This document shows, piece after piece, positions 28,365 through 30,136 of a stretch of 64,000 nt of DNA. The DNA lies in NCBI GenBank assembly GCA_963718085.1, contig CAVQYA010000001.1, positions 1,308,592-1,372,591 of the forward strand. The letters are read 5' to 3'. A program made the translations under genes and the position numbers. The stretch is from an uncultured Chloroflexia bacterium. Lineage in GTDB: Bacteria > Chloroflexota > Limnocylindria > Limnocylindrales > CSP1-4. Positions within the stretch are counted from its first letter, which is position 1. Every line of letters starts with the position of its first letter. The notes below the pieces were generated by a model. It did not search any database. It was not told the origin of the DNA and was given only the letters and a program-made list of their open reading frames with translations.

Positions 28365-28437
28365 CCACGAGAATAGCACTCCCGTCGCGAGGCGGGGCCG
28401 CAAAGCCACGGGACTCTGGGTCAGCCGGGTTGCCGAA
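28365..28437 (+). ncRNA. GEMM-I (c-di-GMP-I class) riboswitch with A20 variant, candidate c-AMP-GMP sensor
   Basis: CACGAGAATAGCACT-CCCGTC-GCGA-GGCGGG-GCCGCAAAGCC-ACGGG..CAGCCGGGTTGCCGAA. It shows P2 with a GNRA loop, the GCAAAGCC junction and 3' GGGTTGCCG, directly 5' of a CDS. Confidence 0.85.
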
Positions 28438-28475
28438 CGGAGCCACCACCATGTCCTGGAATAAGAGGCGCCGGA

Positions 28476-30136
28476 TTGACGAGCAAGCGCCGGCGCGCCT
28501 CTGCCGCGTCGTCGCCGGGCACGCGACTGGCTGCGGTCGGCGTCATGATCTTCGGGATCGCCGCCCTCGCGGTCCCGTTCGTGGCGACGACCGCCGCGTC
28601 CAGCTCCGCTGACCGGCTCATCGCGTCGTGGGGCGGCCCGTTCGACACCCGGGTCTTCCAGGAATCGACGGTGCTCGCCAGGTACGCCAAGACTGGCGTC
28701 GCCAGAAGGGTGACCAGTTCCTGGGTCGGTACGCGGCAGTCTTCGCAGGCTGACGCCGTCGTGACCTTCACGTTCACGGGATCCGGCGTCTCGTGGATCG
28801 GGCCTACGGGACCGAACCAGGGCAACGCGTGGGTGTACGTCGACGGGCGATACGTTCGGACGGTCGACACCTACTCGCGCACACCCAGGCCGCGCGAGGG
28901 ATTGTTCACTACGTCGTTCGCGAGCTTTAGCCGTCACACCCTGACGATCCAGGTCCGCCGGTCGACGGCACGGAAGGTGTCCGTGGATGCATTCCTGGTG
29001 CGCGGTGCCGCGCTAAGGTTGACCGGGAGCTCCGACTCCCACGCCCGCACCGACACCGACTCCCACCCCGCCGACTCCGACCCCGGTGCCGACGCCCGCG
29101 CCGACGGCGACGCCCATGGCCACGCCGGCGCCGACCGCCACGCCGACGCCCACGCCGGCGCCGACCGCCACGCCGACGCCCACGCCGGCGCCGACCGCCA
29201 CGCCGACGCCCACGCCGGCGCCGACCGCAACGCCGACGCCCACGCCGGTCCCGGTCGTGGCGCCGACGCCCACGCCGGCGCCGACCGCCACGCCGACGCC
29301 CACGCCGGCGCCGACCGCCACGCCGACGCCCACGCCGGTCCCGGTCGTGGCGCCTGCCGCCTGCGGAACCCTTCAGGCGCGGATCGACGCGACCCCGGCT
29401 GGCGGCGGCTGCTCGACCTCGCAGGCTGTGCGTACACGGCCGGGGCGACCGTCAACAGGCCCATGACCCTCCGCAATGGAACCGTGACCGTCGGTAGCAG
29501 CCAGACAGCCGTATCGGTCACCTCGAGCAATGTAACCTTGGACGGCTTGTCCATCAGCGGGGGCGGAGTGGCGCAATACGGCATTCTTGCCCATTCCGTC
29601 TCCGGCCTGACGATCCAACGCTCCACGATCACCGACATCCGCTACGCCGAAATCATGGTGCTGTCTGTCTCGGGTGGGGACCATCAGCTCCAACACGGTG
29701 CAGCGCATTGGGGTACAGCTCGCCAACGGCGACAACGCCTACGGCATCGCGGTCTCCGCATACGGCGGCGAGCCCAGGTCCTCGGATGTCACCGTCACCG
29801 GCAACACTGTCGAGGACGTCCCGACATGGCACGGGCTCGACACCCACGGTGGCCTGCGGATCGCGTTTACCAACAACACGGTACGCCGTGCGTCGCGCCC
29901 TGTTCATCACGACCGACACCTCGGGCAACCGCGCGACTGACATCACGGTCACGGGCAACGTGTTCGGCTCGCCGGCCCGGGTCACCTACAACCTCGTGGC
30001 CGTGACGACCTACTCCGCAGTGGGCGTGACCGTCACGGGCAACACCGCCACGGGCTGGGGCACTGCCGCCTTCTTCTACGACTACAACGCCCTGAGCACA
30101 GGTCTCTTCGTATCGGGCAACACGGTGACGAAGTAG
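28476..30136 (+). CDS. Secreted protein: beta-sandwich/CBM-like domain, Pro/Thr linker and right-handed beta-helix (frameshifted)
   Basis: Signal peptide; [33 protein letters not shown] repeats; beta-helix repeats [40 protein letters not shown]. Alternative ATG at 28451. Confidence 0.78.
29031..29352 (+). repeat. Coding tandem repeat, ~30-bp unit CCGACGCCCACGCCGGCGCCGACCGCCACG ([10 protein letters not shown]) with PVVA variants
   Basis: Directly visible near-identical units with no unique spacers. Confidence 0.92.

Follow-up and report, generated by a model that had tools for sequence, protein, structure and literature searches.

GEMM-I riboswitches form a family that is already known, and one further member is in itself routine. 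The question raised by the present locus is whether an aptamer of this family with A, rather than G, where the first base of the ligand is read responds to 3',3'-cGAMP or to c-di-GMP, and whether it has any function ahead of a gene that is broken in frame. The element lies in a window of 64,000 nucleotides (the whole stretch of DNA that was analysed) from a high-GC Chloroflexota genome. The initial annotation, made from the letters of the window, had proposed that this lineage may use cGAMP to switch a secreted beta-helix protein inside a surface-glycan locus. The features discussed below are listed in Table 1.

Table 1. Coordinates of the riboswitch, its leader, the regulated gene and the divergent neighbour, in positions of the window.
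Feature	Position	Strand	Basis or remark
DegT/DnrJ/EryC1 sugar aminotransferase, divergent upstream gene, intact	26851..27975	-	PF01041
Upstream motif GGCTGACC	28338..28345	+	Conserved; candidate promoter element or aptamer-competing strand
CUCC, putative anti-Shine-Dalgarno, 5' side of P1 extension	28363..28366	+	Complementary to GGAG 28439-42
GEMM-I (c-di-GMP-I) aptamer	28365..28437	+	RF01051, 57.3 bits vs cut-off 35
A at the Vc2 G20 equivalent, base reading the ligand's first base	28375	+	RF01051 model position 11
A, Vc2 A47 equivalent, intercalating adenine	28402	+	First A of CGCAAAG after P1a pair
C, Vc2 C92 equivalent, pairs with the ligand's second guanine	28433	+	Unpaired C before 3' P1 strand
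GGAG Shine-Dalgarno sequence	28439..28442	+	8 nt ahead of ATG 28451
Regulated gene, 8 frame changes	28451..30136	+	Stop at 30134-30136
N-terminus: MFWDGxRW-type motif, then Arg-rich stretch and membrane anchor	from 28451	+	Orthologs
CBM6/35-like domain	~28600-29015	+	Fold of ortholog model
Pro-Thr linker	~29030-29360	+	Reading of frames
Right-handed beta-helix	~29412-30133	+	PF13229 in orthologs

The aptamer and its position 20

In a covariance-model search (cmscan), RF01051 was matched well above its gathering score, with E-values of 1.4e-8 for the window and 1.6e-10 for the genome, and the alignment spans model positions 1-87 of 87, that is, the full length. The variant model RF03167 (c-di-GMP-I-GGC) reached 50.7 bits, under its cut-off of 59; its mark is a G replacing A in CGCGAA, and the window has CGCAAAG instead. 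The P1a, P1b, and P2 helices and a GCGA loop of the GNRA type are all found. Across 26 aligned copies, 96.0% of the 624 helix cells are paired, compared with 25-45% in controls with slid partners, and this value was equalled by none of 500 shuffles. The pair 72/83 in P2 covaries (AU in 14 copies, GC in 10, and GU in 2); such covariation is modest because the relatives are close kin. A single-sequence fold of 28355-28475 recovered no aptamer (z 0.19 versus shuffles) and was set aside as uninformative. The element is a genuine member of the GEMM-I riboswitch family.

Vc2 from Vibrio cholerae is the type example, and the numbering of its A47 and C92 is given in the accessible text of PMC6140456 and PMC5888326. 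The window aptamer shares with Vc2 the fold, the GCGA loop, and the equivalents of both bases; the A47 column is A in all 26 aligned copies, and the C92 column (95) is C in 25 of them, with T in G013. As with RF01051 and Vc2, it is placed in the 5' leader of a gene whose product is a surface or extracellular protein. It differs from Vc2 in having A for G at position 20, GCACU for GCAAA following the first pair, C for A preceding CGCAAAG, a very short P2 hairpin, and an expression platform formed by a four-pair P1 extension that contains the Shine-Dalgarno sequence. Both the GCACU and the C-before-CGCAAAG variants are common across high-GC phyla. Compared with its orthologs in the 26-copy alignment, the window aptamer departs at three otherwise near-invariant places: a G is inserted near 28371, position 28380 has T where the others have A, and the P2 hairpin is shorter by 2-3 nt. 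It also scores about 3 bits below its relatives.

Model position 11, an unpaired base adjoining the first 'GC' pair on its 5' side, is taken to be the counterpart of G20 in Vc2. With A there, the window aptamer lacks the G20 of canonical c-di-GMP-selective members; its assignment to RF01051 is unaffected, as A is also present in 21 of 83 similar, GCAC-type copies from Gemmatimonadota, Chloroflexota, Actinomycetota, Proteobacteria, and others. The same riboswitch occurs in 20 of the 42 genomes of the genus, each time ahead of a gene beginning MFWDGxRW. Position 20 is A in 17 of these copies, G in two, and C in one; nine additional Chloroflexota copies, also ahead of MFWDG genes, have A (five), G (three), or C (one). 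Since A in 17 of 20 genus copies exceeds the expectation under free drift, A20 may be under selection of some kind. The GCGA loop and the CAGCCGGG.UGCCG 3' end, which had been taken as further marks of the cGAMP-binding subclass, both occur in the window aptamer. Neither is confined to A20: in the 83-copy set the loop is present in 29 of 59 G20 copies and 15 of 21 A20 copies, and the 3' end in 5 of 59 and 6 of 21, respectively.

Cyclic dinucleotides and their enzymes

The change that defines the cGAMP riboswitches of Geobacter is A20 (PMC6140456, PMC6456294). The Geobacter A20 aptamers are described as preferring cGAMP by a factor of more than 1000, a selectivity that is flipped by A20G (PMC6456294, PMC8835794); therefore, an A20 aptamer can be cGAMP-specific. 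According to the accessible part of PMC6140456, A20 alone leads to bispecific binding, with the G20A mutant of Vc2 binding c-di-GMP at 53 nM and cGAMP at 120 nM. The natural A20 aptamer Cbe 1-2 from Clostridium beijerinckii, a monoderm, binds c-di-GMP at 30 nM and cGAMP at 463 nM (PMC6140456). Among the aptamers covered by that part of the paper, those with A20 from outside Geobacter bound c-di-GMP equally or better. Overall, the range of A20 aptamers described in these portions of the literature extends from a more than 1000-fold selectivity for cGAMP to a preference for c-di-GMP.

The window aptamer resembles both ends of this range in part. With the Geobacter c-AMP-GMP (GEMM-Ib) riboswitches Gs1761 and Gm0970 it shares the fold and the A20 equivalent, and extracellular or surface functions are controlled in both. 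In contrast, the orthologs of the window riboswitch vary between A, G, and C at position 20, and the lineage carries one copy per genome, whereas 17 GEMM-I copies are given for G. sulfurreducens (PMC8835794). For the Geobacter switches, transcriptional ON control by way of terminators is reported (PMC6456294), whereas the window has an SD-containing P1 and no terminator-like site. Cbe 1-2 is alike in being a natural A20 aptamer of a monoderm-type organism, one that is not known to be linked to cGAMP; it binds both ligands. The likeness to Cbe 1-2 is one of description, and the window belongs to another phylum and has another regulated gene.

The genome of the window holds a full canonical set of c-di-GMP enzymes, with 15 GGDEF and 5 EAL domains. 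Asp occupies the specificity position (PleD-D344/GacA-S348) in all 12 GGDEF domains with a readable catalytic motif. The one unreadable domain is GGEEF, which rules out a Hypr enzyme in the Goldilocks model as described in PMC6456294. SMODS had no matches in the genome, and the control search was positive in three named genomes; a DncV-like Pfam search also had no matches in the genome, and little weight is given to it because its control was silent throughout. No Hypr GGDEF or DncV/CD-NTase, of the kinds expected under the proposed cGAMP use, was found among the readable GGDEF domains or by the SMODS and DncV-like searches of this genome, which is 91% complete and in which a synthase of unknown type would escape the enzyme search. 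The genome-wide covariance-model search (2.99 Mb) returned the window aptamer as the only RF01051 copy, so that the further A20 copies considered in the initial annotation were not found. Its inference from A20 to cGAMP use is not sustained by the Asp residues of the readable GGDEF domains, the A, G, or C of the orthologs, and the A20 aptamers that bind c-di-GMP in the accessible part of PMC6140456. Most likely, c-di-GMP is the ligand in the cell. A20 may let cGAMP bind in vitro; its effect is probably to lower or tune affinity, and it is probably not the sign of a cGAMP pathway. cGAMP, the rarer signal of the two, is unlikely to be the ligand here.

A separate observation concerns a 3xGAF-GGDEF protein of the genus; GacB, one of the Hypr GGDEF enzymes, has a GAF-GGDEF architecture. 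In 17 of the 42 genus genomes this ortholog carries Thr (16 genomes) or Ser (one genome) at the Hypr position together with GGDEF, not GGEEF, and its ortholog in the present genome has Asp (NDQLGHQAG[D]). By their residues, the 17 orthologs share with GacA, GacB, and Bd0367 a Ser/Thr at the place of GacA-Ser348 as well as GGDEF, although they mostly have Thr and GacA has Ser. This is the combination described for natural Ser/Thr enzymes in PMC6456294, and GacB is described as cAMP-activated (10.1101/600031). Therefore, cGAMP synthesis may exist in the lineage. The Thr/Ser-type ortholog and an A20 riboswitch occur together in four genomes (G004, G017, G036, and G019); ten genus genomes have the A20 riboswitch with an Asp-type ortholog, twelve Thr/Ser-type genomes are without such a riboswitch, and the sole C20 copy of the genus co-occurs with a Thr-type ortholog. 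The Thr/Ser GGDEF pattern was found in none of ten other genomes with related riboswitches, six of which are A20; the Asp version of the pattern, used as a control, recovers 12 GGDEF domains in the present genome with no false match. A20 does not track the Thr/Ser-type GGDEF.

The leader, the regulated gene, and the glycan locus

The start codon at 28451 lies 13 nt past the end of the aptamer and is the conserved start of the orthologs, and a Shine-Dalgarno sequence (GGAG, GGGG, or GAGG) is present in all 26 copies. A TTG at 28476 with AAGAGG was considered as an alternative start and is ruled out by the conserved ATG and MFWDG start of the orthologs. The helix between CUCC and the Shine-Dalgarno sequence (columns 22-25 with 101-104) is 83.7% paired across the 26 copies, and in two of its four pairs both partners vary, as in G019 with CCCC/GGGG. 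RNAalifold recovered the aptamer helices and left out the SD helix, pairing columns 23-25 with codons 3-4 instead; the pairing of the SD helix was therefore counted explicitly. When 27950-28520 was scanned for promoters and terminators, neither was found, and there was no sigma-70 consensus. Further upstream, GGCTGAC stands at a constant distance from the aptamer in 13 of 17 genus copies. In the window, GGCTGACC is perfectly complementary to 28419-28426 and might be an anti-aptamer strand. A compensating change in GGCTGACC was not seen in the genus copies, and copies with C for U at the pairing base of the aptamer keep an identical motif.

Most likely, the riboswitch senses c-di-GMP and turns translation off, the Shine-Dalgarno sequence being part of the P1 extension. 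Binding of the cyclic dinucleotide would close P1, the four-base-pair extension (CUCC with GGAG) would then bury the Shine-Dalgarno sequence, and translation from ATG 28451 would drop. The OFF direction is proposed from complementarity.

The product of the regulated gene is a surface protein with a membrane anchor; it combines a CBM6/35-like domain with a Pro-Thr linker and a beta-helix and would presumably act on glycans. The window protein is 54% identical to the G006 ortholog across aa 15-191, and its beta-helix is 60-62% identical to those of the orthologs in G026 and G013. In these two intact orthologs PF13229 scores 51.8 and 41.9 bits, respectively (cut-off 25.9), and it scores 23.4 bits, under the cut-off, in the window fragment 29382-29678 alone. 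No Pfam family was matched by the N-terminal domain. The model of this domain from the G006 ortholog (pLDDT 87.5, pTM 0.82) had 68 Foldseek matches in the PDB at E<=0.001. The top matches, with E from 2.5e-7 to 1e-4 and TM of 0.5-0.67, are beta-sandwich domains (CBM-type) of glycoside hydrolases and isolated CBM36, CBM35, and CBM6 modules. In its predicted fold, the domain appears like a CBM6/35/36-type beta-sandwich and is a putative sugar binder.

The surrounding genes include GT4, Bac_transf, DegT, Wzy_C, GT1, and an epimerase, and the neighbourhood is partly kept in G026, G013, and G004. In the DegT gene, PF01041 scores 370 bits over profile positions 7-359 of 360, and the gene is 82% identical to its G004 counterpart in a single HSP. 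For gene calling based on GC3, the threshold of 0.86 was relaxed for this lower-GC glycan island. The locus is an O-antigen/EPS-type glycan locus. Much of the initial annotation was thus borne out, namely the complete aptamer with A at position 20 and the kept equivalents of A47 and C92, the abutting GGAG and ATG that fit translational control, the secreted or anchored CBM-like, Pro-Thr, and beta-helix protein, and the surface-glycan surroundings. The gene directly downstream is present with all its parts, but it is not one open frame, a point absent from the initial annotation. Because of its eight frame changes it is not translatable as written, and these changes point either to a pseudogene, as a decaying unit, or to an assembly error, as a local mis-assembly.

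Weighing of the explanations

It is probable that the element is an ordinary GEMM-I riboswitch, a c-di-GMP OFF switch for a surface protein in a glycan locus, with the unit decaying or locally mis-assembled. The riboswitch-gene unit may also be without any function in this organism. A decaying pseudogene unit without regulation, the fossil of a unit that functions in the relatives, is conceivable, though we would not favour it. It would account for eight frame changes within 1.69 kb, where the 4 of 20 GGDEF/EAL domains that are split elsewhere in the genome (~10.8 kb) lead to an expectation of ~0.6 per gene of this size, and where the adjoining DegT, GT4, and epimerase genes are intact. The loss of one beta-helix coil (~23 aa) relative to the orthologs and the lower-scoring aptamer, with its three departures from 25 relatives, are in line with such decay. 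However, the aptamer remains 22 bits over the Rfam cut-off with every pocket base kept. Frame breaks in this gene are also present in genus genomes of low contig number (G005, G012, G036, G018, G003, and G033), mostly in or near the Pro-Thr repeats, and the present genome is broken in frame elsewhere too. Both observations agree with indel errors in the consensus, as these cluster where a sequence is repetitive or varies between strains.

The GEMM-Ib reading, in which cGAMP controls the surface protein in this Chloroflexota lineage through an A20 aptamer selective for 3',3'-cGAMP, is improbable. The A at 28375 is the change that defines the Geobacter cGAMP riboswitches (PMC6140456, PMC6456294) and is kept in most genus copies, and a candidate Hypr-type GGDEF is found in 17 of 42 genus genomes, four of them also with an A20 riboswitch. 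Against this stand the Asp of this genome's own 3xGAF-GGDEF ortholog and of its readable GGDEF domains, the lack of SMODS matches in it, the A20 copies paired with Asp-type orthologs and the Thr/Ser-type genomes without the riboswitch, the C20 copy in a Thr-type genome, and the absence of the Thr/Ser pattern from the ten other riboswitch genomes. In addition, position 20 alternates between G, A, and C ahead of one gene family, and the natural monoderm A20 aptamer Cbe 1-2 prefers c-di-GMP in the data given in PMC6140456. A20 is common, with a quarter of similar copies carrying it, and alone does not predict cGAMP sensing.

There is a small chance that the A20 class of Limnocylindrales-like Chloroflexota responds to 3',3'-cGAMP in some species, with the Thr/Ser-type 3xGAF-GGDEF orthologs acting as Hypr-type synthases. 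If true, a cGAMP riboswitch pathway would be known for the first time beyond the Deltaproteobacteria, here in a monoderm-type phylum, with a varying set of glycan-binding or glycan-degrading surface proteins as its targets; in the present genome, whose enzyme is of the Asp type, the riboswitch would have gone back to reading c-di-GMP or persist as a relic. The alternation of Asp with Thr/Ser in 3xGAF-GGDEF among sister species could show whether Chloroflexota have cGAMP signalling by GGDEF enzymes.

For the ordinary GEMM-I riboswitch preferred here, the orthologs provide near-identical natural aptamers whose ligand-reading base is A, G, or C, all ahead of one gene family, which amounts to a ready-made series for affinity and selectivity. 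The conserved riboswitch and leader, combined with interchangeable ectodomains, suggest a c-di-GMP-controlled slot for variable surface proteins in glycan loci.

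The aptamer, its gene and the surrounding locus

The element ahead of the secreted-protein gene is a real GEMM-I riboswitch, of the ordinary kind and in a sensible place, and its novelty is GEMM-I membership in a little-studied phylum. In a cmscan of the whole window, the complete aptamer claimed in the initial annotation was matched over the full RF01051 (c-di-GMP-I) model (positions 1-87 of 87) with 57.3 bits (E 1.4e-8; gathering score 35), and no family besides RF01051 exceeded its curated score. The sole additional model in a permissive scan of 28200-28600 was c-di-GMP-I-GGC, with 50.7 bits, below its cut-off of 59; the aptamer reads CGCAAAG at the place where this variant has CGCGAA. 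The model alignment bore out the bases proposed for the equivalents of G20, A47 and C92, the ligand-pocket positions of the Vibrio cholerae type aptamer Vc2 (see table). Further copies with A at position 20 (A20) did not appear in the source genome, G000 (2.99 Mb, two contigs, 91% complete), since a whole-genome RF01051 search returned the window copy alone.

Features of the riboswitch, its gene and related loci (window positions unless a contig or locus is named)
Feature	Position	Strand	Remark
Glycan locus	20000-34000		G+C 66-70%; flanks 72-76%
Upstream motif GGCTGACC	28338-28345		kept in 13 of 17 genus copies
CUCC of added helix	28363-66		pairs with GGAG
GEMM-I aptamer	28365-28437	+	
P1	28368-69/28434-35		
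G20 equivalent	28375		A; consensus G; unpaired, just 5' of first GC pair
A47 equivalent	28402		first A of CGCAAAG, in place
Part of P2 3' strand	28419-28426		perfectly complementary to GGCTGACC
C92 equivalent	28433		unpaired C preceding P1 3' strand, in place
Shine-Dalgarno (SD) GGAG	28439-42		
Regulated gene	28451-30136	+	ATG at 28451
N-terminal leader	28451-28560		relatives: L026-L044, L167-L170
Frame changes 1-2	within first 80 nt	+	
Frame changes 3-4	around 28690-28745	+	a pair
Frame changes 5-6	~29030 and ~29410	+	entry to and exit from Pro-Thr linker
Beta-helix	29412-29675 (part with the missing coil)		
Frame change 7	~29680	+	
Frame change 8	~29895	+	
3xGAF-GGDEF ortholog, G000	C1:1450792-1451259 (L008)		
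Thr/Ser-type 3xGAF-GGDEF gene, G004	L228:1408-3726	-	16 other genomes, L172-L196
Split GGDEF/EAL domains, G000	C2:24013-25258, C1:1789069-1789534, C1:1240897-1241300		two breaks in one GGDEF-EAL gene

The GGAG and ATG said to abut the aptamer were found, and the conserved start of the orthologous proteins, MFWDG(E/T/S)RW(I/V)(D/P)E, begins at this ATG; the gene has an ATG after GGAG in all relatives. There, the start leads into an Arg-rich stretch and then a hydrophobic anchor, RDWLATGVMI.G.AALAVPF. Over the first 20 residues, three of four proteins tested weakly resemble the second half of Pfam DUF2510, with 16-17 bits where the cut-off is 24. The downstream ectodomains, joined by Pro-Thr linkers, vary widely (CBM-like, Ig-like, fn3, glycosidase-like and various beta-helices). 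As a side observation, the riboswitch and the leader are the conserved part and the ectodomains differ between species, so that the arrangement resembles a constant regulated slot carrying exchangeable cargo.

The proposed order of CBM-like domain, Pro-Thr linker and beta-helix was recovered by piecewise comparison: the window gene shares 54% identity with the N-terminal domain of the ortholog in G006, and its beta-helix is 60-62% and 58-64% identical to those of the intact orthologs in G026 and G013, in which PF13229 scores 51.8 and 41.9 bits, respectively. The N-terminal ectodomain was modelled from the G006 ortholog (9-sequence alignment, pLDDT 87.5), and the model had its best PDB matches among CBM-type beta-sandwiches, namely glycoside hydrolase domains and isolated CBM36, CBM35 and CBM6 modules (E 2.5e-7 to 1e-4, TM 0.5-0.67). 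Compared with G026 and G013, some 23 residues (roughly one coil) are missing from the window beta-helix between ...LTIQR and STITD....

The locus is one of surface-glycan genes, as annotated initially, with two GT4 glycosyltransferases, a methyltransferase, a Bac_transf initiating transferase, a Wzy_C protein, a GT1, an epimerase and a divergent DegT aminotransferase around the gene. Neighbours of the Wzy_C plus GT1 or the DegT plus Bac_transf kind also occur in G026, G013 and G004. Lower G+C, as seen here, is common in surface-polysaccharide islands.

Expression platform and state of the gene

When 26 copies and their flanks were aligned, the Rfam helices together with an added SD helix were 96.0% paired, which was reached by none of 500 shuffles; slid controls gave 25-45%. 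At the P2 pair 72/83, 14 copies have AU and 10 have GC. The added helix, between CUCC and the SD and separated from P1 by a small internal loop, is 83.7% paired, with variation on both sides at two of the four pairs (e.g. CCCC/GGGG in G019); RNAalifold alone did not return it, and thermodynamic folding of the single sequence was uninformative. Since no terminator-like site was found, aptamer and start codon are 13 nt apart and the extension pairs with the SD, we infer a translational OFF switch as the simplest reading. Ligand binding would close P1, upon which the CUCC/GGAG extension would form and hide the SD. The upstream motif GGCTGACC may be a promoter element, or else a strand that competes for pairing; no covariation was seen between it and the complementary P2 strand.

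Eight frame changes lie between the ATG and the stop at 30136, versus about 0.6 expected from a genome background of about 0.37 per kb, and the adjoining DegT, GT4 and epimerase genes are intact. The aptamer itself departs from otherwise near-invariant alignment columns at three places. All this fits a real decay of the gene and riboswitch in G000. It is also what a locally poor consensus would give in a gene that is rich in repeats and variable between strains; the same gene is frame-broken in several other low-contig genomes of the genus. Elsewhere in G000, frame changes interrupt 3 of 15 GGDEF and 1 of 5 EAL domains, and these are either assembly indel errors or several pseudogenes.

Distribution and position 20

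Among 61 related genomes, which are close kin and many of them incomplete, GEMM-I occurred in 19 of the 36 other genus members and in none of 24 from a sister family with 1.1 Mb genomes; three of five additional genus genomes also had it. There are two classes. A G20 class of 78-88 nt (69-76 bits; L020-L025, L235) is present in seven genus genomes (G010, G025, G035, G018, G003, G015 and G065) and absent from G000, and a 75-nt class, orthologous to the window copy, is present in 20 of 42. Position 20 of these orthologs is A in 17, G in two (G005 and G013) and C in one (G064). Because the two G20 copies have different sequence backgrounds and nearest copies carrying A, the alignment suggests that they arose by separate changes.

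An exact-pattern scan with one genome per species gave at least 83 high-GC-flavour copies in at least 80 loci, from Gemmatimonadota, Chloroflexota, Actinomycetota, Proteobacteria and others among the matches listed. In the 83 listed, position 20 was G in 59, A in 21, T in two and C in one; nine precede the same gene family, all in Chloroflexota-labelled MAGs, some of them Candidatus Limnocylindrales (A 5, G 3, C 1). Among the matches listed, both features initially taken as markers of the cGAMP class, the GCGA loop and the AGCCGGG..CCG 3' end, were seen with G20 and also with A20. An A/G/C series at the ligand-reading base is a side observation: C20 occurs in the same riboswitch of two related species (G064, L237; and L051) and is therefore not a one-off error.

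Cyclic-dinucleotide enzymes and the ligand

In the literature, A20 is the defining base of the cGAMP class in Geobacter, and the change A20G turns Gmet_0970 to c-di-GMP (PMC6456294); Gm0970 is about 1600-fold selective for cGAMP (PMC8835794). The window aptamer shares A20 with these riboswitches, as compared through published descriptions. A Vc2 G20A mutant binds both ligands (c-di-GMP 53 nM, cGAMP 120 nM), and Cbe 1-2 of Clostridium beijerinckii, a natural A20 aptamer like that of the window, binds c-di-GMP more tightly (30 nM against 463 nM for cGAMP); the authors describe bispecific behaviour as widespread within this class (PMC6140456).

The c-di-GMP apparatus of G000 is normal (15 GGDEF and 5 EAL domains). 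The residue that reads the substrate base (PleD D344/GacA S348) is described in PMC6456294 as Asp in canonical cyclases and Ser in Hypr enzymes, the GGDEF proteins that make cGAMP. It is Asp in all 12 G000 domains whose catalytic motif can be read; another domain, frameshifted at this residue, has GGEEF, which the same source reports as incompatible with Ser/Thr. The search of G000 for a cGAMP synthase also gave no SMODS-type CD-NTase (control positive) and no DncV-like match (control silent). The step from A20 to cGAMP was made on one base, which is common, labile within the same ortholog group and unaccompanied by a candidate synthase in G000, and we therefore regard cGAMP as an improbable ligand. 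At high c-di-GMP, judging from sequence, the riboswitch would most likely block translation of a surface protein that presumably binds or degrades glycans.

The genus was searched for N[DE]xxGHxxG plus an adjoining Ser, Thr or similar residue by means of a degenerate DNA pattern; its sensitivity was roughly 11 in 12 on the domains of G000, where its Asp version recovered 12 GGDEF domains and no false match. Of 29 matches, 18 fall within one conserved gene in 17 of 42 genomes, encoding a 3xGAF-GGDEF protein that reads NETMGHEAG-T ... RYGGDEF in 16 genomes and NDANGHVAG-S in G007. A G000 gene is its single-copy ortholog (best matches 60-67% identical, next best 43-45%) and has Asp; Asp is present in 12 genomes, counting G000. 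A20 occurs with the Asp type in ten genomes (including G000), with the Thr type in four and with an ortholog not read in three; G20 occurs with the Asp type in two and C20 with the Thr type in one; in 12 genomes with the Thr/Ser type no riboswitch of the 75-nt class was found. By this pattern, a Thr/Ser GGDEF was found in none of ten genomes outside the genus with related riboswitches, six of them A20. Therefore, A20 is not tied to the candidate synthase. The alternation of Asp with Thr/Ser in this ortholog is a side observation; its Thr or Ser forms, which combine the Hypr residue with GGDEF, are candidate cGAMP-making enzymes in Chloroflexota.
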